Source: Chiloscyllium plagiosum (taxonomy: Eukaryota). Taken from it: DNA of 64,000 nucleotides. This document shows positions 4,171 through 62,794 of the stretch, one piece after another. The position numbers and the translations under genes are program-made. The notes below the pieces were generated by a model, which was not told the origin of the DNA, did not search any database, and saw only the letters and a list, made by a program, of their open reading frames with translations. The first letter of the stretch is position 1, and every line of letters starts with the position of its first letter. Location of the stretch: the NCBI RefSeq assembly GCF_004010195.1, contig NC_057718.1, positions 77,749,571-77,813,570 of the forward strand, in the 5' to 3' direction.

Positions 4171-5144
4171 CCATGTTCTTCTAGATAAAAGTAGTTGTGG
4201 ATTTGGAAAATGCTGCCTGAGGATCTTTGGTAAATTTGTACAGTGCATCTTGTAGATAGTATATATTGCTGTTACTGAAAGTAAGTGGTGAGGGAAGGGA
4301 TGCTTGCGAAGGTAGTACCAATTAAGCGGGCAACTTTGTCTTTGATGATTTCAAACTTCTTGAATGTTGGAACTTCACCCATCCAGGGAAGTGAGGAGAA
4401 TTCCATCACACTGCTAACTTGTGCCTTTTAGATGGCGGATGGTTTTGGGGAGTCAGGACTTGAATTACCCACTGCAGCATTCTGAACATTTGATTGACTC
4501 TTGTACCCACTATGTTTATGTGGTAAGTCCACTTGAGTTTTTGGTCAATGGTAATCTAAAGGCTTGCTAAAATGCGAGAATTCAGTGATCGTAATACCAT
4601 TGAATGCTAAGGGGCAGTGATTAGATTGTCTGTTATTGGAGATGGTCGTAGCTTGGCATTTGTGTGGCATAATTGTTACTTGCCATTTGTCAGCCCAAGC
4701 CTGGATATTGTCCAGATCTTGTTACATTTGACCATGAATTCCCTCAGTATCTGAGCAGTCATGATGGGGTGCTGAATATTGTACAATCATCTTCTGACAT
4801 ATGAAAGAAAGGTCATTGATGAAGCAATTAAAGATGGTTGCGTCTAAGACACTATCCTGAGAACTCCTGCAGAGATGTCCTGGAGCTGAAATGTCTGATG
4901 TCCAATAAGCACAACCATCTTCCTATGTGCCAGGTATGACTCTAACCAGTGGATAGTATAATCCATAATGCCTTTCAATTCCAGTTTTGCTAGGGCTCCT
5001 TGGTGCTACACTCAGTTGAATGCAACCTCAATGTCAAGGGTTGTCACTCTTACCCCACCTCTGGAATTCAGCTCTTTTGTCCATGTTTGAACCAAGACTA
5101 TAATGAGGATGGGAGCAGAGTGGCCCTGGCAGAACCCAAACTGG

Positions 5145-5365
5145 TTGAAACTTTATTGCGGGAACAGCACAGCAGGTCAGGCAGCATCCAGGGAACAGGA
5201 GATTTGACGTTTCGGGCACAGGCCCTTCTTCAGGAAAAAATCTTCGGCCTGTGCCCGAAACATCGAATCTCCTGTTCCCTGGATGCTGCCTGACCTGCTG
5301 TGCTGTTCCAGCAATAAAGTTTCAACTTTGATCTCCAGCATCTGCAGACCTCACTTTCTCCTCGA
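5145..5365 (+). mobile_element. Hairpin PLE mini-element (family A) with 14-bp TSD
   Basis: TSD agaacccaaactgg at 5131-5144 and 5366-5379; arms about 5145-5224 and 5246-5326. Confidence 0.9.
5206..5233 (-). ncRNA. Minimal hammerhead ribozyme motif (family A), intact core
   Basis: Minus strand CTGAAGA-A-GGGC-CTGT-GCCC-GAAA-CG-TC. Confidence 0.7.
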
Positions 5366-6988
5366 AGAACCCAAACTGGGCATCACTGAGCAGGTTATTG
5401 CTGACCAAGCAATAGCACTATTGATGACACCTTCCATCACTGATCGAGAGTAGATTGATGAGACATAATTAATTAGGTTGGATTTATCCTGCTTTTTGTT
5501 TACAGGATACACTTGGACAATTTTCCACATTGTCGGGTAGGTGCCAATGTTGTATCTGTACTGGAAGAGCTTGGCTACTGGTGTGTGGAGTTCTGGAGCA
5601 CAAGTTCTATTGTTGGAATGTTGTTAGGGCCCATTGCCTTTGCAGAATCCAATGCCCCCAACTATTTCTTGATATCATGTGGAGTGAATAAACTTAGTTG
5701 AAGACTGGTATCTATAATGTTGAGGACCAAGATGGATTCCCCACTTGGCATTTCTGGATGAAGATTGGTGCGAATGCTTCAGTCTTATTTTTTTCTCTTG
5801 TGGGTTGGGCTCTTCCATCATTGACGATGGGAATATTTGTGAAGCCTCCTCTCCAGTGAATTGTTCAATTGCCCATCACCATTTATGACTGAACATGGCA
5901 GGACTGCAGAGCTTAAATCTGATCCATTGGTTGTGGGATTGGTTAGCTCTGTCCCTCACTTGCTGCTTATGCTGCTTGGCATGCAGATAGTCCTGCTTGG
6001 TTGCCTCACCTGGTTTTCTGCTCATTTTTAAATATGCCTGGGGCAGCTCCCAGCATTCCCTCCTGCACTCGCTATTGAACCATGGTTGATTGCCTGGTTT
6101 GATGATAATGGTTGAGTGGGGGATATGCTGGGCCATGAGTTTGCAGATTGTGCTGGATGACAATTCTGCTATTGTTGATGGCCCACAGCACCTCATGGAT
6201 GCCCAGTCTTGAGTTGCTAGATGTGTTCAAATTCTGCCCCAATTAGCACAGGGATAGTGCCACACAACATGATGATTTCACTTTCTTGAACCACCATAGT
6301 CCATGGGATGTAAAGATACCCACAGTGCTGTGAGAAAGGGCATTCCAAATTTGAAACCAATGGATGTGATTTTATGGGTCCGAGGAGAGTAGGAATCATG
6401 GTAGATAGCGGACATAATAAGCAAGTGCTGAAATTTCACTTTCTTCATAGCTGGTTCAAATTTAGAGATGAATTCATGTTTATGTCAAGTCCATCCTCAC
6501 ATTAACCCATGGCAGGTACTTGTAATACATTTGTAATGCATTTGTAATTTATGATCATGAAAATCTATTTTTTTGTTGCATCTAATGTTCATGATAAAAC
6601 CAGCATTGCAAGTAAATCTTGAAACACCTGATTCATGTTTACTTAAAGATGGTGTGCAACAATTGGCTCTCTATACAAGGGAGGAGAGAGGAGAAGGGCT
6701 GAAAATGTGTTGCTGAAAAAGCGCAGCAGGTCAGGCAGCATCCAAGGAGCAGGTGAATCGACGTTTCGGGTATGAGCCCTTCTTCATGAATGAGGAAAGT
6801 GTGTCCAGCAGGCTAAGATAAAAGGTAGGGAGGAGGGACTTGGGGGAGGGACGTTGGAAATGCAATAGGTGGAAGGAGGTCAAGGTGAGGGTGATAGGCC
6901 GGAGTGGGGTGGGGGCGGAGAGGTCAGGAAGAAGATTGCAGGTTAGGAAGGCGGTGCTGAGTTCGAGGGATTTGACTGAGACAAGGTG

Positions 6989-7590
6989 NNNNNNNNNNNN
7001 NNNNNNNNNNNNNNNNNNNNNNNNNNNNNNNNNNNNNNNNNNNNNNNNNNNNNNNNNNNNNNNNNNNNNNNNNNNNNNNNNNNNNNNNNNNNNNNNNNNN
7101 NNNNNNNNNNNNNNNNNNNNNNNNNNNNNNNNNNNNNNNNNNNNNNNNNNNNNNNNNNNNNNNNNNNNNNNNNNNNNNNNNNNNNNNNNNNNNNNNNNNN
7201 NNNNNNNNNNNNNNNNNNNNNNNNNNNNNNNNNNNNNNNNNNNNNNNNNNNNNNNNNNNNNNNNNNNNNNNNNNNNNNNNNNNNNNNNNNNNNNNNNNNN
7301 NNNNNNNNNNNNNNNNNNNNNNNNNNNNNNNNNNNNNNNNNNNNNNNNNNNNNNNNNNNNNNNNNNNNNNNNNNNNNNNNNNNNNNNNNNNNNNNNNNNN
7401 NNNNNNNNNNNNNNNNNNNNNNNNNNNNNNNNNNNNNNNNNNNNNNNNNNNNNNNNNNNNNNNNNNNNNNNNNNNNNNNNNNNNNNNNNNNNNNNNNNNN
7501 NNNNNNNNNNNNNNNNNNNNNNNNNNNNNNNNNNNNNNNNNNNNNNNNNNNNNNNNNNNNNNNNNNNNNNNNNNNNNNNNNNNNNNNNNT
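6989..7590. other. Assembly gap
   Basis: Run of N. Confidence 1.
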
Positions 7591-9146
7591 TGGAACTGGT
7601 CCTCCTGGGAGCAGATGCGGCGGAGACAAAGGAATTGGGAATATGGGATGGCATTTTTACAGGGGGCAGGGTGGGAGGAGGTGTAGTCTAGGTAGCTGTG
7701 GGAGTCGGTCGGTTTATAGTAAATGTCTGTGTTGATTCGGTCACCCAAGATAGAAATGGAAAGGTCTAGGAAGGGGAGGGAGGAGTCTGAGACAGTCCAG
7801 GTGAATTTGAGGTTGGGGTGGAAGGTGTTGGTAAAGTGAATGAACTGTTCAATCTCCTCGTGGGAGCATGAGGCAGCGCCGATACAGTCATCGATGTAGC
7901 AGAGGAAAAGGTGGTGGGTGGTGCCAGTGTAGCTGCGGAAGATGGACTGTTCCACATATCCTACGATGAGGCAGGCATAGCTCGGGCCCATGCAGGTGCC
8001 CATGGCTACTCCTTTGGTTTGGAGGAAGTGGGAGGATTGGAAAGAGAAGTTGTCAGAGTGAGGACCAGTTCAGTCAGTCGAAGAAGGGTGTCAGTGGAAG
8101 GGTACTGGTTAGTACGGCGGGAAAGGAAGAAGCGGAGGGCTTTGAGTCCTTTCGTGATGGGGGATGGAGGTGAACAGGGACTGGATGTCCATGGTGAAGA
8201 TAAGGCGTTGGGGACCGGGGAAGCAAAAATCATGGAGGAGGTGGAAGACGTGGGTGGTGTTCCGAACATAGGTGGGGAGTTCTTGGACTAAGGGGGACAG
8301 GACCGTGTCGAGGTATGCAGAGATGAGTTCGGTGGGGCAGGAGCAGGCTGAGACAATGGGTCAGCCAGGGCAGTCAGGTTTGTGGATTTTGGGCAGGAGG
8401 TAGAAATGGGCGGTGCGGGGTTGTGGGACTATGAGGTTGGAGGCGGTGGATGGGAGATCTCCTGAGGTGATGAGGTTCTGGATGGTCTGGGAGATGATGG
8501 TTTGGTGGTGGGAGGTGGGGTCATGATCAAGGGGGCAGTAGGAGGAGGTGTCCGCGAGCTGGTGTTTAGCCTCAGTGGTGTCAAGGTCGGTGCGCCAAAC
8601 TACTACTGCGCCTCCCTTGTCTGCCGGTTTGATAGTGAGGTTAGGGTTGGAACGGAGGGAGTGGAGGGCTGCACGTTCTGAGGGTGAGAGGTTGAAGTGG
8701 TTGAGAGAGGTGGAGAGGTTGAGGTGGTTAATGTCGCGGCGGCAGTTGGCTATGAAGAGATTGAGGGCAGGTAAGAGGCCAGCACGGGGTGTCCAGGTGG
8801 ATGGGGTGTGTTGGAGGCGGGAGAAGGGGTCGTCAGAGGGTGGGCGGGAGTCTTGGTTAAAGAAGTAGGCACGGAGGCGAAGGCGGCGGAAGAATTGTTC
8901 GATGTCACGCCGCGTGTTAAATTCATTAATCCGGGAGCGTAGGGGAATGAAGGTGAGGCCTCTGCTGAGGACTGATCTTTCATCCTCAGAGAGGGGTTGT
9001 TCTGGAGGGATGGTGAAAACACGGCAGGGCTGGGAGCTCGGATCTGGTGTGTGGCTGGAGCTGGGAGTGGGGACGGGGTTGGGCATGGGTGCGGGGACGG
9101 AGTTTGACGTGGGGGCGGGATTAGGCATGGTGACGGAGATCAGCAT
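7591..9146 (-). pseudogene. PLE reverse transcriptase, frameshifted
   Basis: ORFs 8361-9146, 8006-8269 and 8003-7591 join into a Penelope RT (ADKG, LPKIHK, YIDD, FLDL, YYKPTD). Confidence 0.9.
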
Positions 9147-9220
9147 GGGGCGGAGTTAGGCGTGGTGACGGAGATCGGCATGGGGCGGAGTTAGGCGTGG
9201 TGACGGAGATCGGCGTGGGG
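9110..9220. repeat. ~35-bp tandem repeat x3 inside the PLE 5' region
   Basis: Unit ggggcggagttaggcgtggtgacggagatcggcat. Confidence 0.85.
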
Positions 9221-9992
9221 GTGGAGACACATGCGGCGTGGTGCTTGTGCAGGTTAGTGATGTCACTGGGGGCAGAATTGGCTGCGACGACGGCAACCCA
9301 GGGGGCGGAAGTGGCTGTGGCGACGACAGAAACGGTGTTATTCCCGACCCCGCGGAGGCCGCGAATCTGTCGGCGATGGTCTTCCTGGCGATTGTGGAGG
9401 CGGTTGTCTGGGCGGCGATCGCGGAGGCTGCGAGGTCGGTGGGGGCGGAAGTGACGTCATGGTTCGCGGCGGCGGTTGCTGCCACGGGTGCTGCAGCGGC
9501 CGCGTGGTTAATGGCGCTCGTGTGATTTCGGAGGCCGGTGGAATAATCTGGAACAGTCCTCAGCAGAGGCCTCTGACGACCCCTTCTCCCGCCTCCAACA
9601 TACCCCATCCACCTGGACACCCCGTGCTGGCCTCTTACCTGCCCTCGATCTCTTCATAGCCAACTGCCGCCGCGACATTAACCGCCTCAACCTCTCCACC
9701 CCTCTCACCCACTCCAACCTCTCACCCTCGGAATGTGCAGCCCTCCACTCCCTCCGCTCCAACCCAAACCTCACTATCAAACTGGCAGACAAGGGAAGCG
9801 CGATAGTAGTTTGGCGCACCGATCTTTACACCACTGAGGCTAAACGCCAGCTCGCGGACACCTCCTCCTACTGCCCCCTTGACCATGACCCCACCTCCCA
9901 CCACCAAACCATCATCTCCCAGACCATCCAGAACCTCATCACCTCAGGGGATCTCCCATCCACCGCCTTCAAAAAAAAATTTTTTTAAATTC

Positions 9993-10020
9993 CTGAAGAA
10001 GGGCTTATGCCCGAAACGTC
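9993..10020 (+). ncRNA. Minimal hammerhead ribozyme motif (family A), intact core
   Basis: CTGAAGA-A-GGGC-TTAT-GCCC-GAAA-CG-TC. Confidence 0.75.
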
Positions 10021-10088
10021 GATTCTCCTGTTCCTTGGATGCTGCCGGACCTGCTGCGCTTTTCCAGCAACACATTTTCAGCTTATGT

Positions 10089-10785
10089 NNNNNNNNNNNN
10101 NNNNNNNNNNNNNNNNNNNNNNNNNNNNNNNNNNNNNNNNNNNNNNNNNNNNNNNNNNNNNNNNNNNNNNNNNNNNNNNNNNNNNNNNNNNNNNNNNNNN
10201 NNNNNNNNNNNNNNNNNNNNNNNNNNNNNNNNNNNNNNNNNNNNNNNNNNNNNNNNNNNNNNNNNNNNNNNNNNNNNNNNNNNNNNNNNNNNNNNNNNNN
10301 NNNNNNNNNNNNNNNNNNNNNNNNNNNNNNNNNNNNNNNNNNNNNNNNNNNNNNNNNNNNNNNNNNNNNNNNNNNNNNNNNNNNNNNNNNNNNNNNNNNN
10401 NNNNNNNNNNNNNNNNNNNNNNNNNNNNNNNNNNNNNNNNNNNNNNNNNNNNNNNNNNNNNNNNNNNNNNNNNNNNNNNNNNNNNNNNNNNNNNNNNNNN
10501 NNNNNNNNNNNNNNNNNNNNNNNNNNNNNNNNNNNNNNNNNNNNNNNNNNNNNNNNNNNNNNNNNNNNNNNNNNNNNNNNNNNNNNNNNNNNNNNNNNNN
10601 NNNNNNNNNNNNNNNNNNNNNNNNNNNNNNNNNNNNNNNNNNNNNNNNNNNNNNNNNNNNNNNNNNNNNNNNNNNNNNNNNNNNNNNNNNNNNNNNNNNN
10701 NNNNNNNNNNNNNNNNNNNNNNNNNNNNNNNNNNNNNNNNNNNNNNNNNNNNNNNNNNNNNNNNNNNNNNNNNNNNNNNNNNNNA
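10089..10785. other. Assembly gap
   Basis: Run of N. Confidence 1.
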
Positions 10786-10789
10786 GGTC

Positions 10790-11480
10790 CACACCCCCCA
10801 CCAACCCAACCTCCACTCCCGGCACCTCCCCCCGAAACCGCAAGAAATGCAAAACTTGCGCCCACACCACCCCCCTTACTTCCCTTCCCTTTCCTGAAGA
10901 AAGGCTTATGCCCCAAACATCGATTCTCCTGTTCCCTGGATGCTGCCTGACCTGCTGCACTTTTCCAGCAACACATTTTCAGCTCTTCCCTTCAAGTACC
11001 CAAGGGATCCTTCCATATCTGCCACAAATTCACCTGCACCTCCACACATATCATTTACTGCATCCGCTGCACCCGATGTGGCCTCCTCTATATTGGGGAG
11101 ACAGTGCGCCCACACCGTCCCCCTCACTTCCCTCCAAAGCCCTAAGGGTTCCTTCCATATCCGCCACAAATTCACCTGCACCTCCACACACATCATTTAC
11201 TACATCCGCTGCACCCGATATGACCTCCTCTATATTGGGGAGACAGGCGGCCTTCTTGCGGAACGTTTCAGAGAACACCTCTGGGACACCCGGACCAACC
11301 AACCCAACCACCAGTGGCTCAACACTTCAACTCCCCTCCCTACTCCACCAAGGACATGCAGGTCCTTGGACCCCTCCATCGCCAGACCATAGCAACACGA
11401 CAGCTGGAGAAAGAGCGCCTCATCTTCTGCCTAGGAACCCTCCAACCACAAGGGATGAACTCAGATTTCTCCAGTTTCCT
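10790..11480 (+). pseudogene. PLE Cys-rich linker and GIY-YIG endonuclease (disrupted, partly duplicated)
   Basis: RKKCKTCAH; FTCTSTHIIYYIRCTRYDLLYIGETG..LAERFREHL; AQHFNSP; LGTLQPQGMN. Confidence 0.85.
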
Positions 11481-11698
11481 CATTTCCCCTCCCCCCACCT
11501 TGACTCAGTCCCAACCCTCGAACTCAGCACCGCCTTCCTAACCTGCAATCTTCTTCCTGACCTCTCCGCCCCCATCCCCCACTCCGGCCTATCACCCTCA
11601 CCTTGACCTCCTTCCACCTATTGCATTTCCAACGCCCATCTCCCTAGTCCCTCCTCCCTACCTTTTATCTTAGCCTGCTGGACACACTTTCCTCATTC

Positions 11699-11726
11699 CT
11701 GAAGAAGGGCTCATGTCCGAAACGTC
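11699..11726 (+). ncRNA. Minimal hammerhead ribozyme motif in the PLE 3' terminal repeat
   Basis: CTGAAGA-A-GGGC-TCAT-GTCC-GAAA-CG-TC, about 100 nt before the element end. Confidence 0.75.
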
Positions 11727-14700
11727 GATTCACCTGCTCCTTGGATGTTGCCTGACCTGCTGCGCTTTTCCAGCAACACATTTTCAGCTCTGATCTCCAG
11801 CATCTGCAGTCCTGACTTTCTCCTAGGAGAGAGGAGAATAGCAGCTTATGAGAGGCTTGGGTACAGAAATGGTAAATCACTGGTGAGGGATGGTGGTGTA
11901 GTTGGGAGGGGTGAGGACACGAGGGATTGGAAAAAGTTTGGAGAAGTGAAATAGGAAAAGTCTGGCCTCTGGGATGTAGTGAGAGCAGAAAGTGAAGCTA
12001 AGGAATTGAGGAATCCAAAGATGTGTCAGGACTGTCTATCTCAAAGTGATGGCTGGCAGAGTCCTCGCAGGGCACAACATTTCAATCATCCCAGGTGAGA
12101 GTGCTCTCAAACAAGATCTTTTATATTACATAGAAGGGAGTGTCGGTAGCTAAACTGATGAGTACAACACTGAACATTAATACAAACATTCAATAAAGAT
12201 TGATCTCAAAAACAAACACTTCTTCCACATTAAATGAATGACCTAAACTCCCTTGTAACTATTTTTACCTGCCAGTTGTGAGGTGTGGCAGTGCATTTAG
12301 CCCTCTGACTAAGCTATATCAACAAATAACAATGATGCACCCATGAATAAAGTGAGACCAGTGTAAGTGAAACTTAAATCAGAAAACACCAGTGCCACCT
12401 TTGTGCTCTCACTACGCCTTATGTTAATGGAAATGAAGTTGGGCAAGTGATGGTCCTGATGAAGAGCTTGTTTGTCCAGGAGTTTCTTTTGTAGCCTGCC
12501 CCCTAATTGCTGCAGTGTCAGCTAACGGTGGGTTTCACCCGTGGAAGGTTTTTCCTGCCACAGGAACACATGTGATTCCAGTCCACCAACACTTTAGATC
12601 TTAATTGTAAATGCATGGCAACCAGCAAAAACCAAGAGAATGGAAGTGGTGCCTGTGTTCTCTCCGATTGTTGGGAGCAAAACAACACGGTTAATATTCC
12701 ACCCATTATTTCTGGTAGTTCTTTAAATTCATCCAATAGTGCTATTGGACGATGGATGCTTGTCATCTTATTTGGAGACTGTTTCCTTCATTCTTCCTAT
12801 TGTCATTTAGCAAAAGGCTCAAAAATGTAACTTCACACATTAACTTTACAGTCAATGCTTTATTGTAGACTATTTTAAAAATGCACAAGATATATTTTGG
12901 TCACAAGCAACACATTGCTCTCTACTCAGCCTGTAAGATGTTTGAAGAGGCTTGCAGACAGGGTGCGACAGGGAATGACAAATCCTGTGCAACATTGTGA
13001 AGTAAGCTAACAACCTTTCTATACCCAGAATTTATGGTATTACAAAAGTGAGACCCAAGAACAACATCAGTGAATGCCTTTAGTAAAACAACATACTGTG
13101 GAAGGGAAATGCATGTTGATTTTGCCTGAGTCACTGCTTCAAGTTACAAATCAAAAGGTAGCAATTCCTTACATTCCAATCTTAGCAGGCTAGCCAAATG
13201 GAATTTAAAGCACACCTCATTATATTGGAATAATAGGAAGCACTGTTCATTTGCACGCCCAGACTGGTTTGAAGGTTTTTTTGTTATTCATATTTCACCA
13301 CAATATTTCATTACTTATAATAGAAATTCATATCCAGTCACTTCAGTACATTGTTAAATTATTTTAATTAGGTTGTTTGGAGTGAAAACATTTCAAGGTG
13401 TCTGAGCACTGTTTATAACAGTGATATAACTGATTTATAACACAAGCCATTAAAAAAAAACAGAATCTTGTTTTTCACACTTTGTATCTTGGTTTGCTTA
13501 TTGCATACTTTATTACCTCTCCATTTAGATTTGCTTTCCCTCATTGCCTTACTTCATTTGAATTGAGTGTTTACAGTGTTCTCACAGAACTTGTGACCAG
13601 TCATTAGCTGATGGCCAAGAAAGGTCCTAAATGGCTCAGTCTCTATTACTCAAACCATTCATTGTTAAGCAGTTGGCAATTAGCCAGACATTCTCCTTCA
13701 TATGACAGCAGAGATTAGAACTGCATTATATTTCACTGCCTATTGTCAGTTTTTTTAAATTTCAAAACTAGATTAGCTAATGTAATTAACATTCAATCAA
13801 TATTTGCTTAATATAAATATTGTAGCTCAAACGTTTTTTAAAAAGTTCATGATTAACATTCACTTCGTAAATAAACAGAGGAGTTATTAAAAGGACACTG
13901 TTTCAGGATAAAGAATTTGACAGATGTTGTTGGTAGTTATATGAACAGCCAAAACAGAACTGGGGGATAGTTTTTGTTACAGCTATGTACTTATAAATTA
14001 CACAATAATGCACAAAAGCACAGTAATATCACTGCATTATATATTAAGGAGCAATGTAACAAAAGGGACTTACAAATTCTTTTGTCATGGAAGCTGTTGT
14101 TAGTTCTGACCACCTTAAAACACCAATGGCATATTCTTGTTGTCCTAAATATAAAACAATTATTGTTAATGGCATCTTGACAACTGATTTGTGATTTCCT
14201 GTGCCATTCACCATGATGTCAGATGATCTTTTAATCTTTTAACAAGTCGTATTCCTTTCAACAAGCTAATGAATACAAAATCCACCAAAACTGTTTACAG
14301 TGTGAGAGACTCAATCGGCAATGGGGTAGAATGTAAAACAAATTTGTTAATGACAACAATAAAATTGCTGAAGTGTCAAGTCATCCACAACTGATGTTTC
14401 AATTTTGTGACTCCCTTGTAATGCACAAAGTATAACAGTTTAGCATGGTATTATCAATGCTAACAGAAGGAGAATTGAGAAGAAAAAGATTGAATGTTTT
14501 CCTTTGATGAAGAATAAAATTGTTCTTTATTAGTTGTTTGTTCAAATTGATTAAGTCTTCAAAATATGTTAAGATCCTACCATTGATTAAAATCAGTGAG
14601 GTAGAGGAGTATCAATCTCATAGAGCCCAATGTGACACTAAATCAGGTACAAAGGATTCATGTCAAGCTACATGGCACAAAGTTCTGTATGCTGTTCTCA

Positions 14701-17240: not shown

Positions 17241-19261
17241 AAATCTATTGTGCATCACCAGACAGGATGCAACGTATACCCACATGTAACGATTGAGCAG
17301 ATGAAAGGAGTAGTGCATTATTTAATCTGCCAGATACTGTTGTACACAATTTCAGTTCTTCTAGCGAAAAGTAGAAATCAACAACCAGCAAGGGTTGATT
17401 CATTTTGTTTGTGAGTCCGATCTGTGACCATAGTTGTGTAAAATCTCTGTTGTTGTTTAGATGTGCTGAGTTGATGGTTAGTCAGAGCAACTTTCACATT
17501 TCCAAACAATTGAAATGAATTTGTAATGTGTCCTAGTCACCATTTTGTTCAAGGAGTAATTCCTTCACACAGGAAATGCACAAAATACAGGGCTGAAGTT
17601 GGTCAAAAATCAGTTCCATGTTAATTTCAAGGGGTTTTAAAAAGGATTTCTAACAGCTCTAACTGGTTTTCTCTAACTGGTAATGCTCACCTCATTAACT
17701 AAATGCTGTACCCCTATGGTGCGGCGCTCACACTGTCATGCACTCGACAGTGCCAGAAGTGCTCGTAGCTGCTGGCACCTTCCGGGATTTGCTCCATTGA
17801 TGCCATGTTGAAATCCTAACTCTGCCCCAGTGCAGATGCATCAAGCTGTAAAAAGCCCTTCACAGTTGCAATGGGAAGAGGAACTGCATTGGGAACAGCT
17901 GATAGAAGAAATTTGGCACACCAATTTTCTCAGAAAGAGCGATAGTTTCTGGTGGATAGGATGTTGTGAAGAAGGGTCATCTGCTTTCCACAGGACCAGC
18001 AAAAACAGTCTCACAACCAGACTCAAGATTAAGCCCCAGGTTTTAAAACATATGTAGAAGTATGGGTCACTGAGGCGAATCCACGAGGTTGAGAGCTTCA
18101 TGGAAAATACGTTCATAGATGTAGTCACTGATGAAATGGAAAAGGGTGATCATCAGCCAGCCAAGTAGAAATTAGTAGAAAGTGTTGTCATCCCTTCAGT
18201 GCATCTCACTTTCTAGCCAATGTTCAGATCTGAATATTATTGAAAGTGGCATTTCATCTGGGGAGCACAGAGTCAAGTCCTAGGCACCATGGATAGGTAA
18301 TCTGTAAAGAGGGACTCAAGGAACACTGGAAGAGCAATAGTAACAGCTGATTCAACTGTTAGTTTCTGCAGCCACAGATGTGAGTCCTGGTTGGTGCGTT
18401 GTCCACTGAGAGCCGAGGTCAAAGGTTTCACTGAACAGCTACAGAGTACACTGATTGGAGAGAGTGGACAGCCAGAAATTGTAATATACATTGGTAAGAA
18501 CAGGAAAGGCAGAAAGAGGGATGTGGTCTTGCAGTCAAAATTTAGAGAGTTAGGTCAGAAATGAGCAAGCAGGACCTCAAAAAATAGTAATCTCCAGTTT
18601 ACTCTCGGTGCCACATGCAAATTAGTGAATAAAAGGAGAATAAAGCAAATAAATGTTTGACTTAAGGTGTTTCAGGAAAGAGAGTTTTGGATTCTTGGGG
18701 ACAGTTTTGGGAGAGATACGGTTTATGAAGGTTACACCCAAATAGAGCTGGGACTGAGTTGCTTGCAAGGTAATTTGTTGGTGTTTGATGGTTTAAGTTA
18801 ACCTGGGAGGGTAGAAGAAACAATAGAAAATATTGGAGAGAAATACCAAGATGCAAGGAGTCTTGGAGGAGAAAATAACACCAGAGAAGGATATAGAAAG
18901 TTATTAACTGTGGTCAGAGTAAGGGAGAAAATAGCAGACTAAATCGGATTAATAAGTATTAATGTGAACTCATGGTATATGGTTAATAGGTTTGGTGAGC
19001 TACGGGACAGATTGACATGTGGAAATAATATATGGTTAAAATAAGGATTTGGTTCAAAGAAGGACAGATCTTTGTGTTAAATACCTTGTATTCGGGAAAG
19101 ATGGGAAAGGAAGAAAGGGGATTGGAGAGGTGGTATTAACGAAGGAGAGCATTGCAGGGTTGGAGGGAGATGATATTCCAAAAGGGTCAGAAAATCTATT
19201 TAGCTAGAGCTAAGGAACAAAGCAAGGCGCATTTACATTGCTCAGTTTATTCTATAGGTCA

Positions 19262-19425
19262 AAGTAGGAGAAAGTGAGGACTGCAGATGCTGGAGATCGG
19301 AGCTGAAAATGTGTTGCTGGAAAAGCGCAGCAGGTCAGGCAGCAACCAAGGAGCAGAAGAATCGACGTTTCGGGCATGAGCCCTTCTTCAGGAATCCTGC
19401 GCCTTTCCAGCAATACATTTTCAGC
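19262..19425 (-). mobile_element. PLE mini-element (family A) with short inverted arm, intact hammerhead at 19364-19391, 15-bp TSD
   Basis: TSD ttattctataggtca at 19247-19261 and 19426-19440. Confidence 0.9.
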
Positions 19426-19821
19426 TTATTCTATAGGTCACCAACTAATGAAAGAGGTGCTAACTGTTACGGACATATTACAAGTTTTAAAACAAGTTTC
19501 TCTCCTTATTCTCACTTCTTGTCCATTAGCAGATTGTGATTTAAGTTTTCCCATTTTTTAAACAGTGGAGTTGCATTTGTCTGATTTCGTCTGTTTGTGA
19601 ACTCTAACTCTGTACAGACCACAACAATATTGTGGTAAAGTTAGAAAAGAAGTAGAGTTTATATCACACAATCTCAGAGGCAGGGGAATGTTTTACAATA
19701 CTGTAAGATAGAATCAAAAAGAATGAAGGCAATATTCAATTAATACCAACTTATATACAAAATAACAAGAGTTACTAGTTGAACAATGTCCTTGCATGTA
19801 AAAATAGAATCCAAAAGTCAG

Positions 19822-19950
19822 GATTGATGAAGAGCTTATGCTTGAAACGTTGACTATCCTGCTCCTCAGGTGCTGTCTGACCGGCTGTGGTTTTCCAGCA
19901 CCACACTTTTTGACTCTGATCTCCAGCATCTGCAGTGCTCACTTTCTCTC
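19822..19950 (+). mobile_element. PLE mini-element (family A variant)
   Basis: TTGATGAAGAGCTTATGCTTGAAACGTT followed by the family tail ctccagcatctgcagtgctcactttctc. Confidence 0.8.
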
Positions 19951-22600: not shown

Positions 22601-22965
22601 GACAAAATTTGCATAATTGGCAGCCCTAGCAGACAAGTTTCTAGTGACCTAATCTAAGGATTTCTGGACTCCCCAATTAGTAAAGGCCGAGATGGATTCA
22701 GAAGGAAAAACATTGAGGCAAATGCTTGACAGTCACTGGTAATACGTAGTTGTCAGGTCCAGCAGACAGCAGGATCTTCTTCCAGGAAACTGTAGATGAC
22801 ACAACAAGGGAACCTGAGCCTGCTTAACAACTATTGTTCTATATATCAAGGAAACTCGGATTCTCTCCAAACCTCCCATCTTGTGGGCAATGTCTCCAAT
22901 GAGCAGCACTTGTCTGCCACTCCTCTCTCTGCTCCTTGTCGCAAATAGGTTTCTGCTACTGCTGG

Positions 22966-23120
22966 GCAAAAGTGAGGACTGCAGATGCTGGAAACCAGAG
23001 TTTAGATCAGAGTGGTGCTACTCTATTCCTGATGAAGGGCTTTTGCCTGAAACATCGGTTTTCCTGCTCCTTGGATGCTGCCTGACCTGCTGTGCTTTTC
23101 CAGCACCACTCTGATCTAAA
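22966..23120. mobile_element. Hairpin PLE mini-element (family A) with 15-bp TSD
   Basis: TSD ttctgctactgctgg at 22951-22965 and 23121-23135; CTGATGAAGGGCTTTTGCCTGAAACATC. Confidence 0.9.
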
Positions 23121-23179
23121 TTCTGCTACTGCTGGTACAGCTGCTGGTTCTGCTGATGTTGGCACTAGTGCCAGGATCT

Positions 23180-27287: not shown

Positions 27288-27759
27288 GGAAGAGCCGCTG
27301 TTGGACTGGAGTGGGCAAAGTTAAAAACCACACAACGCCATGTTATAGTCCAACAGATTTATTTGGAATTACAGCTTTTGGAGCGCTGCTCCTTTGTCAA
27401 GTAGCTAGTGGGGCAGGATCATAGGACACAGAATTTATAGTAAAAGATCAAAGTGTCATGCAACTGATGCGATGTATTGAACAAACACAGACTGATACAA
27501 GTCTTTAATCACTTAGAATGGGTTGCAAGTTTCAATTCATAAATATGTAAATCTCAGAACTTCTCTCAAGTCAAATTCCTGAGATAACTTAAGGTTTTAT
27601 AAAAATGGTGACATTTCAGCTCAGACAATGCATTAAAGGTGTAAGGTTAGAGTTTGTCTATATTCCAAGCTTGAGTGCATGAAGGAGCAGCGCTCCAAAA
27701 GCTTGTGTTTTCAAATAAACCTGTTGGACTATAACCTGGCATTGTGTGATTTTTAACTT
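27288..27759. mobile_element. Fold-back PLE terminal-repeat element (family B)
   Basis: Inverted ends aagttaaaaaccacac / gtgtgatttttaactt; TSD-like agacctga(t/a)gt at 27277-27287 and 27760-27770. Confidence 0.85.
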
Positions 27760-27869
27760 AGACCTGAAGTTACAGCTAATAATCTTGGCCACTGTAGCAC
27801 CTAAAATAAACAAAGTGAATTGAATTCAAGGCATCGCATTATACTAACAAAAGGGGTATAGTTAATTGC

Positions 27870-30300
27870 AGGTCTTGTTTCATTTGAACATGGACTGCTT
27901 CAGTATCTGAGGAATTCTCAACATTGTACAATCATCAGACACTATCCCCACTTCTGATCTTATGATGGAGGGAAGGTCACTGATAAAGCAACTGAAGGTG
28001 GTGGAGAAACCCTGAGAAACTCCTGAAGAAATGTCCTGGAGCTGAGATGATAACCTCCAACAATCACAACCATCTTCCTGTGACTCCTACCAGTGGAGGG
28101 TTTGCTCCCGATTCCCATTGACTCTTTCCTTAGGCTCCTTGATGTCACACGCACTCTTGAGGTTTTCATGGCCTGTCACTCTCACCTCACTGTTGGAATT
28201 CAGCTCTTTTGTCTATGTTTGAACCATGGCTGTAATGAGCCCAGGAGCTGGGTGGCCCTGTCAAACCAAAATTGGGCATCGCTAAGGTGGTGCTGCTTGT
28301 TAGCACTGTTACTGACAGGAGTTATCAAAAGTGCTCCATCACTTTACTGTTGGTCAAGGGCAAACTGATGGGATGTTAATTGGCCAGGTTGAGTTGCTTT
28401 TTATGTACAGGTCATACCTGGGCAATGCAGGGTAGATGCCAGTGTTGGAGCTGTGCTAGAATGGCTTGGCTTGGAAAGTGCCATGTTTTTACCACGAGTC
28501 TTCACTACTTTTGCTGGATTGTTGCCAGGATGCATAGGCTTTGCAGTATTCAGCATCTCATCCAACCATTTTGTGATATAGCTTGGAATGAATCGAATTG
28601 GCTGAGGTGGATCATTCACTTGGCACTTCTGACTGAAGATCATTATGAATGCTTCATCCTTACCTTTGCACTAATGTGCTGGGTTCTTCCATCATTGAGG
28701 ATGGGGGTATTTGTGGACCATCCTCCTCTAGTGAGTTGCTTAATTGTCCAGCACTATGCATGACTGGATGTGGCAGGACTTCAGAGCTTAAATCTGATCC
28801 AAAGGTTGTGGGATCATTTAGCTCTGTTGATCAGTCGCTGCTTATGCTGTTTGGCTTACAAGTAGTGCTGTTTGGTTGCTTCACCAGGTTGACACCTCAC
28901 TTTCAGGTATTCCTGCTACGGTTCCTGGTATGCTCTTGTGGCCAGACGAGTAGCTCCAAATGATGGATTTATGAAAAATGGATAATAAAGAGGCATGCTG
29001 GGAAATTGGCATAAGCTTTGACCAAAAGTGGCTGTGCTCAAAGACTCTGGAATAAATATGCTGCAGAACCCAGACAGGCTGCAGCTTCAGACAAGATTAG
29101 AGTGATTCTGGAAAAGTACAGCAGGTCAGGCAGCAGAAAAATCGACATTTCAGTCAGGAACCCATGCAACTGACCCTGCAGCTGCAGACAATACAATATA
29201 CACCTGAATTGGAATTGAATAGAATCGATCTGAACATCATCCCCAGGACAATCGAAAATATTGAGTTGCTTACCAGACACAGGGGCACCTCACCACCCTT
29301 ATTTGGAAGGGCTACCTGACTTATGTGCACCTAATGCCTCCAGGAATGGATGCTCAAGGACTACCATCGACATTTCAATGCCTGGTTGAATCCGATCGAT
29401 CAGGATGATCAAGCCCTGACCGATCTATTGGTGGGGGCATTAAAGACCCTCCCAAAAGGGCTCGAAGACTTCTAAGTATAAGAATCACTGCAACACAACC
29501 CTTAGCTGCAATAACTCGAGCCCAACCACCAAGAAGTTAAGACATCTCTGGGACCACTGGGTGAAGACCAGGCGTTCATCGCCATGTGGATCAAGGCCAA
29601 GAGCTAGTGTGGTGGCATAGGGTCATTCCAGAGTTAAGTTAAAGCACAACCTATTTGATTAGATTTATAATGTAAATTGTTAGTTTGTAGAATATTTTAT
29701 TATTATTATATTATTTGTGTTAAATAAATAAATATTATCGCTTATGATTATTAAGAGTCAGCTCGCAGTTTTTCCTAGATGTAGGAGTTAAACAGGAGGA
29801 AAGTGAGGAATGCAGAGAGTGTGGTGCTGGAAAAGCACAGCAGGTCAGGCAGCATCTGAGGAGCTGGAGAATCAACATTTCAGGCAAAAGCCCTCCACCA
29901 GGAATGAGAACGTCAAATCTCCAATTCAGGTGTATATTGTATTATTTGCAGCTGCTGGGTCAGTTGCATGGGTTTCTGCCCGAAATGTTGAGTTTCCTGC
30001 TCCTCGGATGCTGCCTGACCTGCTGGGCTTTTCTAGCACCACACCCTTGACATAAGAATTAAACACACTGTGTGGCAGGTGCAACACCCTCCTGCACTCT
30101 CTGTTGAACCAAGGTTGATCCCCTGGTTTGATGGTCATGGTTGAGTGGGGGATTTGCCAGGCCATGAGATTACAGATTATGATGGAGTACAATTCTGCTG
30201 CTATTGATGGCCCATAGCACCTCATGGATGCCCAGTCTTGAGTTGCTAGATTTGTTTGATGTCTGTCCCATTTAGCACAGTGATAGTGCCACACAATCTA
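27870..30300 (-). mobile_element. CR1-group LINE fragment split by a solo LTR
   Basis: Homologous to 4700-6270; resumes at 30087 with IKPGDQPWFNRECRR. Confidence 0.8.
28937..30086 (+). mobile_element. Solo LTR with nested PLE mini-elements
   Basis: TGTGGC...GCAACA termini, 4-bp TSD ctct/ccct, AATAAA at about 29723; family A pieces at about 29095-29165 and 29796-30048. Confidence 0.7.
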
Positions 30301-39329: not shown

Positions 39330-40620
39330 CATAATCTTCATTAGAAACAGCAAGTGACCCAAAACAGACACTGAGGAAACACACTAATGACTGCTGCCCT
39401 GACAGAGCTATTTCCACCATCTGCTTCCGATTTCTACATTAATTTTCAGGCCAAGCAGCAATTAGCTCTTCAATGTCTTTTTATAAGCTTCATATAAACA
39501 GCTCCCCAAATGCTTCCCTGTATTCATCTAGTTGTGCTCAGGATGTGGACAGAGCTGCCAAGATTACATTCATGAGAAGATGGTTCTCCTTCAACCATAC
39601 AGTCCTTTCAGTGGCACTGTTCATTATTGTTCTGCAAGGGCTGCTTTACAACTGAGGAGCTTGCAAAGTCTGCTTACAAGGGAGCTAGGCCACGAAAACG
39701 GATGTTGCAGGACCCCTCAGGAAGGTGCTAGAAAGTTCGTAAATGGTGTGCTCCATGTTTTCACCCACTTTCAAGCTTAAAAAGGCAAGAATGCAAGTGT
39801 GGCAAAAGTAAGGACTGCAGATACTGGAAACTAGAGTTTAGATCAGAGTGGTGCTGGAAAAGCACAGCAGGTCAGGCAGCATCCGAGGAGCAGGAAAATC
39901 GACGTTTCGGGCAAAAGCCCCTCATGAGGAATAGAGACAGGAATGCAGGTGTGCCGTGTGCATGCTCAAAACATCGAATGCAGATGATTCTGATGTCAAA
40001 CAGCTTTTCTGGCTGATTTGAGGCACCTTTTCAACCATACTCAGATTCATGGAATGCCTGTGATAATCACTCTCGCATTTAGATTCACAAGTACACCCAG
40101 GCTGTGAGATTTAATACCTCCCTGTGCGGCATTCACCATTATGTCTGGGAGGTGACTGAGGTTCTATTCACAAGAGGTATTTTCATTGCATTCTTTTTAG
40201 CAGAAGTTGCAGCATGAGAGGGCATGCTTGTCTGCCAAGTTAGCAGGATTTCCAATGATGCAGAGATTCATCAATTGTTGGCCCGACATGTCAATGGAAA
40301 CAAGTGCTGAATTGCAAAGGCTACAATGCCATCAATACACGGTTTGCTGTATGACGTCTGCTGTTGTTGAGTTGATGAATGCCTAGTATGTTAACACAAA
40401 CTAGGACATCTACAGTTGATGTCGATTGCTGTTCCCTTCATCTTCCAGCCTCCAAGACAAAGAAATAGGATAGCTGCCCAGACAAAAGGGATACACCCTC
40501 TGCCCTAACTGATGAAAATTCCACCTCACCAGCACCTAGGCAAAAACCACAGGCCTACAATGAAGGCCTACAATGAACATTCTTAAGTAACAGCTCCATT
40601 GCCTGGATCAGTTGGTTTCA
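39330..40620 (+). pseudogene. Highly decayed Harbinger (HARBI1-like) transposase fragments
   Basis: AGFPMMQRFINC at about 40242 (cf. AGFP.VQGAIDC); G*LPRQKGYTL at about 40468 (cf. GWLLGDKGYPL); YSP..ALFIIV..LYN at about 39600. Confidence 0.5.
39802..39940 (-). mobile_element. PLE mini-element (family A), single arm, 13-bp TSD
   Basis: gaatgca(a/g)gtgtg at 39789-39801 and 39941-39953. Confidence 0.85.
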
Positions 40621-42899: not shown

Positions 42900-43595
42900 T
42901 GCAAAATGTAGTTCTAGTCTCCATATTTTAAGGAAGAATATTTTTAAGTTGGAGTCAGTGTAGCAAAGGTTCACTGAGTTGGGCCCTGGGATGGGAGATT
43001 GACCTATGATGAGAGCCTGAGTAAATTGGGCCTATATTTTCTGGAGTTTAGAGGAATGAGAAGTGATCTCATTGAAACATACAATATTCTGAAGACACTG
43101 AGGGTTGATTCTGCTGAACTATGGAATCTAGAATATTGGAATCATGTTTCAGGAGAAAAGGGAGATCATTTAGGTCTGAGGCAAAAGCATTTCACTCAAG
43201 GCTTGTGAATCTTTGGAATTCTCCATCTCACAAGATTGTGACTGTTCTATCAATGACAAAGACTGAAATAGACAAATGGGATGGTCTCTCAGGGTATCAA
43301 TAGATATGAGAAGTGGATGAATAAATGGAATTCAAGAGTATGGTGCTGGAAAAGCATAACAGGTCAGGCAGCATCTGAGGAGCAGGAGAATAGACATTTC
43401 GGGCATAAGCCCTATTCTCCTGCTCCTCAGATGCTGTCTGACCTGCTGTGTTTTTTCAGCACCCCACTCTCGATTCTGATCTCCAGCACCTCACTTTCTC
43501 TGGATAAGTGAAATTGAATGCCATGATCCGCCCATGATTGTAATAAATGAAAGAGCATACATAATAGATCATGTGGTGTACTTCAACTCCTATCA
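42900..43595 (+). mobile_element. CR1 3' fragment with nested family A hairpin (about 43333-43500)
   Basis: YDESLSKLGLYFLEFRGMRSDLIETYNIL; degenerate TSD tgaataaatggaatt / tggataagtgaaatt. Confidence 0.8.
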
Positions 43596-49728: not shown

Positions 49729-49765
49729 GCTCTGATGAAGAGTCATCTAGACTCGAAATGTTAGT
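49729..49765 (+). ncRNA. Minimal hammerhead ribozyme motif (family C)
   Basis: gct-CTGATGA-A-GAGTC-ATCTA-GACTC-GAAA-TG-TT-agt. Confidence 0.65.
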
Positions 49766-49996
49766 TTGCTTTCTCTCCATGGATGCTGCCTGACCCGCAA
49801 CGATCTCCAGCATTTCTTGTTTTCCTCCTGTGAGGATGTTGGTTGAATTCTCTTCGGATGTAATCTGTTTCATCTAGACTCGAAATGTTAGTTTGCTTTC
49901 TCTCCATGGATGCTGCCTGACCCACAACGATCTCCAGCATTTCTTGTTTTCCTCCTGTGAGGATGTTGGTTGCATTCTCTTCGGATGTAATCTGTT
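49743..49996. repeat. 127-bp tandem duplication
   Basis: 49743-49869 repeated at 49870-49996 with 2 substitutions seen. Confidence 0.95.
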
Positions 49997-55476: not shown

Positions 55477-57549
55477 AGTTTAAAATCACACAATGCCAGG
55501 TTATAGTCCAATAGCTGCTCCTTCATCAGGTGGTTGTGCAGAATAAGATCATGATCACAGATTTTATAGCCAAAGGAATCCAGTATCATGGAGATGTGAT
55601 ACATTAAACAATTTTAGATTACATCTTTCATCTTTTAGAATGGGTTATGATGGTTCTTTGATATGTAAATCACAGAACTTCTTTCAAATTACATTCTCAA
55701 GATAACTCAGCTTTTCTCACAATCGGTGTGAAGTCTGTCTGTGTCCTAATGTTGAGTCAGACTGACAAGCCCGCTACATAGTTTTGCAGAGTTTTATATG
55801 GATTTGTGCATTTTTGAGCAAAATAAAATGTAATTCTGCAAAAACAAATTCCCCCCATAAACTTATATATGGGCGCGGGTTGGAGTGGCATAGTGAGTGT
55901 GTACGTGAGTGTGTTGTGTATGGGTGTGAGTGTATATGTGTGTGTGCAAGCTTGGTTAAGTGTATGTGTGAGTGTGATGGGTTATGTGTGAGAGGGTGCA
56001 TGTGTTGGTGTGAGTGTGGGGGTGTTGGTGTGTGCATATGAGAGAGAGCTTGTATATGAGAGAGGGCCTGCGTGGGGTGTGTGAGTATGTAGGAGTGCAT
56101 GTATGTGTGTGAGAGAGAAAGTGTATGGTGCTGTGGGGTCACCAGTAGTGTGACATGAACCCAAGGTCCAGGTTGAAGCCAATCTCATGGATACCGAGCT
56201 TTGCTATCAGCTTCTGTTGAGCCACTCTGTGCTATTGCTTCTCCCGAATTCCACTTTAGGGTATGGTCACCTGAAGTTCCGAGGCTGTATGTCCTGGACC
56301 TTTGAAGTGAACACTTCAGTGGTCCAGAACATTTGGCCTCAGACCTTTGGGTGACCATCCTCCAAGGCAGACTTCAGGACAAGCAATCATGCAGAGTGGC
56401 TCAGCAGAAGCTGATAGCAAAGCTCGGTATCCATGGGAATGGCCTCAACCTGGACCTTGGGTTCATGTCACACTACTGGTGACCCCACTGCACCATACAC
56501 TTTCTCTCTCACACACATACACGCACTCCTACATACTCACACACCCCACGCAGGCCCTCCCTCTTATACAAGCTCTCTCTCATATGCACACATCAACATC
56601 CCCACACTCACACCAACACATGCACCCTCTCACACATACCTCATCACACTCACACATACACTTAACCAAGCTTACATACACGCATATATATATATATACA
56701 TACACATACTCTATCAGGCGCACTCACACCCACACACATATACTCACATGCACACTCACTCTGCCGCTCCTACGTGCGCACACATATAGGTTTATGGGAT
56801 GAATTTGTTTTTGCAGAATTACATTTTATTTTGCTCAAAAACTGCATGAATCCATGTAAAACTCTGTAAAACTATGCAGAGGGTTTGTCAGTCTGTCTCA
56901 ACATAAGGACACAGATAGACTTCACACCTATTGTTAGAAAAGCTGAGCTGCCTTGAGAATGATTTGGGAGGTGCCCTTGTTGGACTGGGGTGTACAAAGT
57001 TAAAACTCATACCATACCAGGTTATAGTCCAACAGGTTTAATTGGAAGCACTAGCTTTTAGAGCGCAGCTCCTTCATCAGGTGGTTGTGGGGAATAAGAT
57101 CATGCTCACAGATTTTATAGCCAAAGGATTCCAGTGTCATGGAGAGGTGATGTCACAACCACCTGATGAAGGAGCGTCGCTCCGAAAGCTAGTGCTTCCT
57201 ATTAAACCTATTGGACTATAACCTGGTGATGTGTGATTTTTAACTTTGTCCTGAAAATGTAATTTAAAAGAAATTTTGGGGTTCACATATCAAAGAACAG
57301 AAACCAGCATATCCCATTCTAAAAGATGAAAGATCTAATCTAAAATTGTTTAATGCATCACATCTCCATGACACTGGACTCCTTTGGCTATAAAATCTGC
57401 GATCATGATCTTATTCCCCACAACTACCTGATGAAGGAGCAGCACTCCAAAAGCTAGTGCTTCCAAATAAACCTGTTGGACTATAACCTAATGTTTTGTG
57501 ATTTTTAACTTTGTCCACCCCAGTCCAACACTGGCACCTCTATAAATCA
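55477..57549. mobile_element. Fold-back PLE derivative (family B), about 2.1 kb, 12-bp TSD, nested hairpin at about 56962-57250
   Basis: Centre tgaagtg-aa-cacttca at 56303-56318; TSD aacctaagatta at 55465-55476 and 57550-57561. Confidence 0.92.
57160..57194 (+). ncRNA. Minimal hammerhead ribozyme motif (family B), fully intact
   Basis: CAC-CTGATGA-A-GGAGC-GTC-GCTCC-GAAA-GC-TA-GTG: stem I CAC/GTG, 5-bp stem II, palindromic AGCT. Confidence 0.8.
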
Positions 57550-61250: not shown

Positions 61251-62563
61251 AGAAGGTTCAGTTTTACAGTTACCTAAGAATTAGAGCTGATTTTAATTCC
61301 TCTAACTTTCCCGCATAACTATTCAGGTAAAACAAGTCAGAATCCTCTAAAGTCTTCAACTGTAACTCAGCTTTGAGACCTTTTGGAGCATTCCAGATGT
61401 TAGGTAATTGCCAATGGAAATTCCCAGATAATTCTGAAGTAGACAGTGCATTGGAATATCCAAATGAACCTGTAGTATATTTTTCAAACGATGTCAATGC
61501 AATCGCTATCTTCCAATCAACCCCACTGATTTTATTTTAAGAAGAGCAGTGAAGAGATGAAGGACCTACACAACGTAATAGCCTTAAATATTACAGTTTG
61601 GTCTTAATCATGAGATATCATGGGTCCTGAAACAGCAAACGTGGAAAGATCATTTCTTTTGATGAAGGAGTGTATGATGAAAATCCACCAGTTTAAAATC
61701 AGTGCTGAGAGGAGTATAGTGGGACACCTATATGCACACAGAGAGTTGTTAGAGAATTGGAAGCTTTGTGACTGAGATGTCTGACACTGATAATTGTGTT
61801 GCTTAAAGGATAAGCAGATAAATATCAGAAGCAAAGTAACATATGGGAAAAGGAGCAATGTATTTTATTGTTGGTATATGCATGTGATAAAAGTAAATAT
61901 AGACATAATGAATCCTACTAAGTCTCAGAAATTCTATATGTCATGTAACATTTCATTTTCACTCCACAATCACTATACTTTGTTTCACACCACTTTACTC
62001 TTTCACCTCTTGGCCATCAATTTAAACCTAGGATGAGCTGCAAGGAGAAGGGTGGAGATCGGAAAATTTGAGAATAGGAAATCTAACCACAGCCACCTCC
62101 AGTTTTAGCAGAGACAGATTGACTAAATACTGTCTGTGTCTGGGTGCCTCATTTCAATAGTACCATGAGATTGCTGACTAAGACATTGTCTGTCTTTTGG
62201 GTTGAACATTGGCCAGGTGAGTTTCCTATACTCAGAAACCCAACAAATGAAGGGAGCTGAAAATGGCTGGTTTGAACTGCATTGTTTGCAGGACAGGAAT
62301 ATCAGGATTGTTTCAAACCATTAAATCTGAAAATATTGAAGAAGGTTATGTTTAATCCCCCATGCTGGATGAGCAGAAGAGTGATTGTTGGGAGTTGGAG
62401 AAGGGGGAGCAGTTAAAAGCTTTAAAATGAGATGTAATTCACTTCTATTTCTTTCCCACTGAAGATTCTTTAGCCTGGTGACAGATTTTGATCTAAATGT
62501 CCAAAACAAAAAATCCTTAAAACAAATCTTCCAACAAACATGATAAGATTGCATTAAAGTCAG

Positions 62564-62784
62564 GGAGGAGAAAGTGGGGACTGCAGATGCTGGAGATCAG
62601 AGCTGAAAAATGTGTTGCTGGAAAAGCGCAGCAGGTCAGGCAGCATCCAAGGAGCAGGAGAATCGACGTTTCGGGCATAAGCCCTTCTTCAGGAATCATC
62701 CTGAAGAAGGGCTTATGCCCAAAACGTCAATTCTTCGGCTCCTTGGATGCTGCCTGACCTGCTGCGCTTTTCCAGCAACACATT
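62564..62784. mobile_element. Hairpin PLE mini-element (family A) with back-to-back hammerhead motifs
   Basis: Minus core 62665-62692 intact; plus core from 62701 has GAAA changed to AAAA; TSD ttaaagtcag at 62554-62563 and 62785-62794. Confidence 0.92.
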
Positions 62785-62794
62785 TTAAAGTCAG

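Follow-up and report, generated by a model that had tools for sequence, protein, structure and literature searches.

Short fold-back hammerhead inserts match the pseudo-LTR end of a Penelope-like element, and many share a sharp 5′ edge

EN+ Penelope-like elements (PLEs), as described in the accessible portions of Arkhipova 2013 (PMC3846280) and Craig 2021 (PMC8557442), combine an RT with a C-terminal GIY-YIG domain, carry a hammerhead in their pseudo-LTR (pLTR), and insert with an inverted 5′-truncated copy, a one-sided tail and a target-site duplication (TSD) of about 9–15 bp; solo pLTRs also occur. The tail at one end of such an inverted arrangement measures 30–40 bp (PMC8557442, in part). 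The same portions describe frequent 5′ truncation and contain no single-base peak of 5′ ends, and the available parts of PMC2377424 and PMC8557442 place the transcription start of known PLEs inside the pLTR. For Poseidon of the green anole, the accessible text of Frangieh 2024 (PMC11167929) reports that the PLE protein cuts and extends both target strands in vitro, that two internal RNA start sites delimit the tail and downstream RNA is needed, and that the protein works with a dead hammerhead; that text does not treat inverted or pLTR-only inserts or the RNA start. Metazoan PLE hammerheads of the minimal type I have an extra base before stem II, a palindromic stub for helix III and a short helix I; they are mostly single, with some opposite-strand pairs 100–700 bp apart that are ascribed to truncated PLEs (Cervera and De la Pena 2014, PMC4209133, in the portion available). 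Non-LTR retrozymes (Cervera 2020, PMC7229834; Li 2026, bioRxiv 10.64898/2026.07.22.740005; both as excerpts) are likewise short and non-coding, with a type I hammerhead, kinship to pLTRs and TSDs longer than 4 bp, and they are characterized by head-to-tail tandems, classically canonical hammerheads and circular RNAs.

Against this background we examined a 64-kb stretch of Chiloscyllium plagiosum DNA (the window), in which an earlier note had described short fold-back hammerhead inserts. Positions in the family concerned, family A, are counted from C3 of the hammerhead core, which is +1 and lies at 11699 in the ORF-linked copy, the preceding base being 0. Family A is represented in the window by 19 arms, of which 17 are short and 2 are long (Table 1). 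The earlier note had overlooked the ORF-bearing unit at 6698–11825, which has the same ends as the short inserts and its own TSD, and did not include the copies at 9989, 10891, 19825, 29094, 29794–30051 and 43332–43500. The unit ends tail-less (+90) at 6698 on the minus strand and tailed (+127) at 11825 on the plus strand. Upstream, the copy that ends at 11825 runs into the GIY-YIG fragment; the RT fragment lies upstream of the copy that ends at 6698 and is separated from it by an N gap. Four of the six coding fragments in the unit gave no match in a Pfam search, and a PDB sequence search returned nothing at E up to 1; the Atlas neighbours of the coding fragments are eukaryotic RT-like clusters. 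A CxxC-x-H piece, interrupted by a gap and an insertion, precedes the endonuclease fragment; the Neptune-clade linker between RT and endonuclease is Zn-finger-like. No 5′ pLTR–ORF junction is visible within the 64-kb window. Traits of EN+ PLEs found here are the RT and GIY-YIG fragments, a pLTR with a minimal hammerhead, a one-sided tail, an inverted 5′-truncated copy and a TSD. The stub at 10879–10993 adjoins a 120-bp direct duplication (10985–11104 and 11127–11246). Elsewhere in the window, the reading frames at 1434–1862 and 15572–16036, both on the minus strand, may be pieces of an LTR-element integrase and of a DDE transposase, respectively.

Table 1. Family-A inserts, arms and coding fragments in the window. 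Arm limits are on the C3 = +1 scale.
Feature	Position	Strand	Arms and remarks	TSD
ORF-bearing PLE insert, 5.1 kb	6682..11838		unit 6698–11825; two N gaps inside	14 bp
RT fragment	7590–8069	-	RVT_1, E 0.0066, under the Pfam cut-off
GIY-YIG fragment	11087–11392	+	E 0.00024, under the Pfam cut-off
Focal insert, left TSD	62554..62563	+		10 bp exact
Focal insert, tailed arm	62566..62696	-	-3 to +126 of the PLE end; minimal hammerhead core intact, C3 at 62692
Focal insert, inter-arm junction	62697..62698		2 nt
Focal insert, tail-less inverted arm	62699..62786	+	-1 to +86 of the PLE end; C3 at 62701
Focal insert, right TSD	62785..62794	+
Inverted insert	5131..5379		-2..+88 (minus), about +10..+126 (plus)	14 bp exact (5131/5366)
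Internal arm in ORF-bearing unit	9989..10083	+	-3..+91; core intact
Single tail-less arm	10879..10993	+	-2..+91; within the family's own ORF	9 bp
Inverted insert	19247..19440		-3..+127 (minus), +62..+91 (plus)	15 bp exact (19247/19426)
Older single arm	19825..19948	+	+2..+124	looked for, none found
Inverted insert, second subfamily	22951..23135		tailed minus arm cut at +74; tail-less plus arm from -7	15 bp exact (22951/23121)
Decayed arm	29094..29230	-		looked for, none found
Older inverted insert	29785..30065		tailed minus arm from -6; foreign spacer; tail-less plus arm from about +10	10-bp TSD-like repeat, one mismatch, within chance
Single tailed arm, second subfamily	39789..39953	-	at most -11 to +127	13 bp with one mismatch (39789/39941)
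Older inverted insert	43332..43500		tail-less minus arm from +8; tailed plus arm from +29/+30	not above chance

Every short arm aligns over its full length to the end of the ORF-linked copy or to a sister subfamily. Given this identity with the end of the long element, the same two ends and the comparable TSD length, the short fold-back inserts are, as judged from sequence, the last 90–130 bases of an ORF-bearing Penelope-like element, that is, its 3′ end or pLTR. This agrees with the proposal of the earlier note that PLE machinery mobilised them, in that ends and TSD length match the ORF-bearing copy. The five copies named there do have TSDs of their own (10, 14, 15, 15 and 13 bp, with one mismatch in the 13-bp repeat), which are above chance, and four of the five are folded back, 39802–39940 being a single arm. 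In the focal insert, whose element spans 62564–62784, the TSD can be read as 10 bp exact or as 13 bp if one mismatch is allowed. Altogether, a TSD score of at least 10 was found at 6 of the 11 boundary pairs tested, a level reached by 5 of 400 random position pairs; a score of at least 12 was reached by none of the 400, and a score of 9, which is that of the arm at 10.9 kb, by 12 of them. TSDs at 29.8, 43.3, 29.1–30.0 and 19.8 kb were no better than chance.

At 62665–62728 two cores had been described as sitting back to back. The spacing holds, since the C3 positions of the focal insert lie on opposite strands (62692 minus, 62701 plus) 8 nt apart, with a gap at 62693–62700; only the minus core is whole, and the plus arm, whose final 2 nt overlap the right TSD, has lost the G of GAAA. 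Because the cores are on opposite strands, a single transcript carries only one of them in sense, and a dimeric ribozyme built from the pair is ruled out by the strands together with the broken core. The focal spacing is far below that of the opposite-strand pairs in the accessible part of PMC4209133. Among the family-A arms of the window, the pattern of the minimal core, which has the same extra base, palindromic helix III stub and short helix I as the metazoan PLE hammerheads, is intact in 6 of the 12 arms that span it and broken in the other 6. Helix I comprises four positions including a mismatch, and an Rfam search gave no match at the gathering score. Folding of the 131–133-nt RNAs was no better than that of shuffled sequences (z −0.2 to 0.65), and the stem II hairpin was present in the centroid fold of three of the four full arms folded. 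The predicted cleavage site, after +28, coincides with the start of only one of the 17 short arms, the plus arm at 43413–43414; this arm begins at +29/+30 and is possibly a cDNA from cleaved RNA.

Two further hammerhead-bearing families occur in the window. Family B has a 127-bp tandem pair at 49743–49996, consisting of end plus flank and 98% alike, which is either local amplification as proposed for the birth of retrozymes or an assembly artefact. Family C has inverted arms at 27288–27760 and 55475–57545, with a 1.3-kb palindrome at 55685–56966. A 20-base motif of family A was also searched for in sequence collections; it turned up in no viral, 9 genome and 17 metagenome stretches, and all 26 were rejected as chance matches, the matching span being at most 34 bases in each.

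All seven inverted inserts, six short ones and the 5.1-kb unit, pair one tailed with one tail-less end. The tail-less 3′ ends fall at +86 to +92 (about +90) and the tailed ones at +124 to +127 (about +127), and the 36-nt gap between the two matches the PLE tail in length. The tailed end is also fixed in contigs of three organisms: loose ends at 11823–11825 (+125 to +127) were found in at least 1189, at least 1200 and at least 937 contigs, with mixed flanks (agreement 0.32–0.35). The consensus of the loose ends behind 11823 opens with an identical five-letter stretch in each of the three DNA runs, which hints weakly at a common continuation past +127. We note that CCAA stands about 13–18 nt past the tailed end in 7 of the 9 DNA consensus rows listed, within AT-rich mixed flanks (agreement 0.32–0.35); it occurs in all three organisms, its position moves in step with that of the end, and it may reflect a target preference at the far edge of the TSD. 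A joint between 11784 and 11823, where +86 and +125 ends meet tail to tail on opposite strands, was seen in 8, 7 and 1 contigs of the three DNA runs and perhaps reflects tandem or circular forms of the inverted unit.

The six fold-back junction pairs, (−2, +10), (−3, +62), (+74, −7), (−6, +10), (+8, +29) and (−3, −1), all differ, which argues that the palindrome was not copied from a master. Sister arms are mutually closest in only one of five comparable inserts, that at 5131..5379, where private variants in common make them 96% alike against 86–89% to the best other arm; derivation of both arms from one template was likewise clear in one of the five. One pair of separate arms does have its junction in common: those at 29094–29230 and 29920–30051 (the 29977 arm), 700 bp apart and inverted, break at the same place (+10 to +13) next to about 65 nt of the same non-family upstream sequence, which could result from remobilisation or from a local template switch. 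Shared junctions, which the earlier note had taken as a mark of a distinct unit, are thus absent from the fold-backs but present in one arm pair.

The earlier note had further placed arm breakpoints close to the 5′ edge of the ribozyme, and the 5′ ends in the window confirm this, with a non-uniform distribution that peaks at −3. Nine of the 17 short arms start in −7 to +2, 7 start at +8 to +74, and none starts in −200 to −12. The P value of the cluster was 5e-5 under a uniform null from −200, 1e-3 under a uniform null from −11 and 2.5e-4 under a fitted geometric null (at most 0.001 in all three), from 20,000 draws per null with both long arms left out; for older arms some of the ends were assigned manually, the arms at 29.1 kb and 29977 are not independent of each other, and the left arm at 23.0 kb was entered as +72, a later reading being +74. 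The edge recurs in the raw reads of the best-matching organism (2265 aligned reads). Across the 20 bins that end at 11647 depth stays at 26–88; it then rises to 133 and 169 in two successive bins, to 527 in the bin starting at −2, a threefold step, and to 815–1116 further on. Exactly at 11695 (−3), 84 raw reads depart from the reference into mixed flanks (agreement 0.38), and besides a subfamily difference at +90, −3 is the sole 5′ loose end among the rows listed for this run. In contigs of the three organisms the end region is covered 4.4, 7.3 and 4.0 times as deeply as the upstream sequence is on average, contig depth being distinct from copy number. The step may be due in part to subfamilies that differ upstream, to the additional pLTR copies that long elements carry and to a small number of loci with very many reads. 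Family C in the window has scattered 5′ ends (+4, −8, −71, −175, −198 or further, −370 or further), so the −3 peak is specific to family A and not general.

The peak lies beyond the entire ribozyme motif, at the 5′ edge of helix I. YYANWYY is the initiator consensus; both subfamilies match it with the A at −3, a post hoc match in a setting where 12 of 699 positions on that strand fit. At the expected spacing from −3 no counterpart of the downstream promoter element known from Drosophila Penelope was found. Of the sequencing runs listed as containing the family, none is recorded as RNA, which counts neither for nor against expression. RNA data came from one raw poly(A) single-cell run, ill-suited to start-site mapping, of which about 2 in 100 reads were sampled, and no RNA start or end site was seen in the family; 92 in 100 aligned RNA reads continue into unlike sequence and so resemble read-through of genomic copies. 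A G precedes −3 in two of the three window arms that end exactly there, and both can also be read as sister-arm sequence; two contig joints into 11695 end in G, and the read consensus there ends in T. A splice acceptor at −4/−3 was rejected, no AG being present. In the open-access texts searched we found no precedent for a fixed 5′ start of pLTR-only inserts or for a run-off explanation; the fold-back architecture itself is known. Family A differs from the EN+ PLEs described above in that most of its inserts in the window are pLTR-only and their 5′ ends peak at one base.

On balance we lean slightly towards the view that the stubs are made anew at each site, by priming on two strands at +127 and about +90 with a likely run-off at the RNA 5′ end (−3). 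The enzyme of the element would use both cut target strands as primers for reverse transcription, beginning at two internal points of the RNA, and a staggered cut would give the 9–15-bp TSD. The cDNA begun at +127 and that begun at about +90 would then be joined head to head as the tailed and the tail-less arm. On this account −3 would be the start of a pLTR-promoted RNA, and initiation in the 5′ pLTR copy, the one that would hold the downstream binding sequence, would leave only 90–130 nt to copy. Ribozyme cleavage would be unnecessary, and the stubs would mostly be dead ends, since downstream RNA was required in the one PLE tested in vitro. The same two tail-bounding RT starts, the use of both strands and the dispensable cleavage would liken family A to Poseidon, probably of another clade, by analogy with the accessible account in PMC11167929. 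The initiator-like A at −3 and the known PLE starts within the pLTR would be in keeping with run-off from a pLTR-initiated RNA in particular.

Among the alternatives, the one that survives best, and that we still consider unlikely, is that the stubs are solo pLTRs, left when a full insert lost its ORF by crossover between direct pLTRs and kept the inverted pair and the TSD. An inverted pLTR followed by pLTR, ORF and pLTR plus tail, with a 9-bp TSD, is the typical structure in the accessible part of PMC3846280, where solo pLTRs are ascribed partly to recombination or deletion; pLTR recombination would yield exactly the focal structure, and −3 would remain the boundary of the pLTR. However, each stub would need a full-length precursor, yet PLE copies are mostly 5′-truncated (PMC8557442, in the portion available), and the crossover targets would be short: the tailed arm is about 55 nt at 22966–23120, where the two arms have only about 19 nt in common, and it starts at +10 in the insert at 5.1 kb of the window and at +29 in that at 43.3 kb. 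Somewhat harder to believe is that the GIY-YIG endonuclease trims its own intermediate at the ATT of −3 to −1 and thereby fixes the 5′ edge whatever the RNA start. The base of the −3 peak does begin an ATT, and the anole PLE protein favours 5′-ATT-3′ near its ORF–pLTR junction (PMC11167929, in part), but a second ATT at +30 to +32 attracts only one of 17 arms, and in the read flanks there is a hint of another motif at the far edge of the TSD.

We regard fold-back self-priming, in which one cDNA or antisense template snaps back and copies itself with no second target-primed start, as improbable. It has been proposed for PLE inverted junctions with palindromes (PMC3846280, accessible portion), and it would suit the private variants common to both arms at 5.1 kb; left unexplained by self-priming alone are the second-arm end at +86 to +92 beside the TSD in all seven inverted inserts and a tail-less arm longer than its tailed partner (22966–23120). 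Equally improbable is a self-propagating non-autonomous family, SINE- or retrozyme-like, with masters and small or circular RNA of its own. Short copies make up 17 of the 19 arms, contigs cover the end region 4.0–7.3 times more deeply (again distinct from copy number), the 29.1 kb and 29977 arms have a junction and foreign upstream sequence in common, and in a rotifer the pLTR sequence alone was enough for mobilisation in trans (PMC3846280, in part). Against this, the inserts have no sequence of their own and no Rfam family at the gathering score, the six fold-back junctions differ, the ends lie off the cleavage site in 16 of 17 arms, and half of the spanning cores are broken. The arms lack a tRNA, 5S or 7SL head of their own and consist of PLE-end sequence only, and a master copy would be at odds with the differing junctions, yet single arms have the −3 start, and one pair a junction, in common. 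None of the 14 tandem-repeat rows of the window is a head-to-tail family-A array; family A has single or head-to-head copies with minimal, not canonical type I, hammerheads, in contrast to the retrozymes. The distinct SINE- or retrozyme-like unit of the earlier note is thus unsupported; of its other suggestion, a stereotyped truncation at the ribozyme, the non-uniform ends are supported, and a stall as their cause is so weakly at best. Least probable of all is that RT stalls at the ribozyme fold. Four arms do begin at +8 to +20, within the stem II hairpin or at its edge, but RT would meet the 3′ side of the fold first, the main peak lies where synthesis has already passed the complete motif, and the stability of the RNAs does not exceed that of shuffles. 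With the peak past the whole ribozyme and folding like that of shuffles, run-off from an RNA 5′ end is a likely explanation and fits better than a stall.

In LTR elements, minus-strand strong-stop DNA is a short cDNA run off the RNA 5′ end, and in L1 twin priming two target-primed cDNAs are joined head to head. For family A both are analogies only: here the short product itself would integrate, and the two arms overlap in sequence. Tentatively, and with clearly less confidence than in site-by-site synthesis of the stubs, we consider it possible that such stubs are the default PLE product, a strong-stop-like cDNA of the 5′ pLTR integrated without strand transfer, and that long copies need a jump from the 5′ end of the RNA to the 3′ pLTR. 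In PLEs generally, the inverted pLTR would then come from a second target strand primed at the second internal start, −3 would preserve in the genome the point where transcription starts, and some stubs that keep the promoter might seed new pLTRs or remobilise.

These findings bear on how the inverted ends of PLEs form, where their RNA starts and what role the hammerhead has. Inserts of the pLTR only, whose 3′ ends are fixed at two positions and whose 5′ edge is sharp, would be a natural read-out of the steps of PLE retrotransposition, and they predict an RNA start at −3, two target-joined cDNAs and a dispensable cleavage. For annotation, they caution against listing hairpins of this kind, which are PLE ends, as a new SINE, MITE or retrozyme family.
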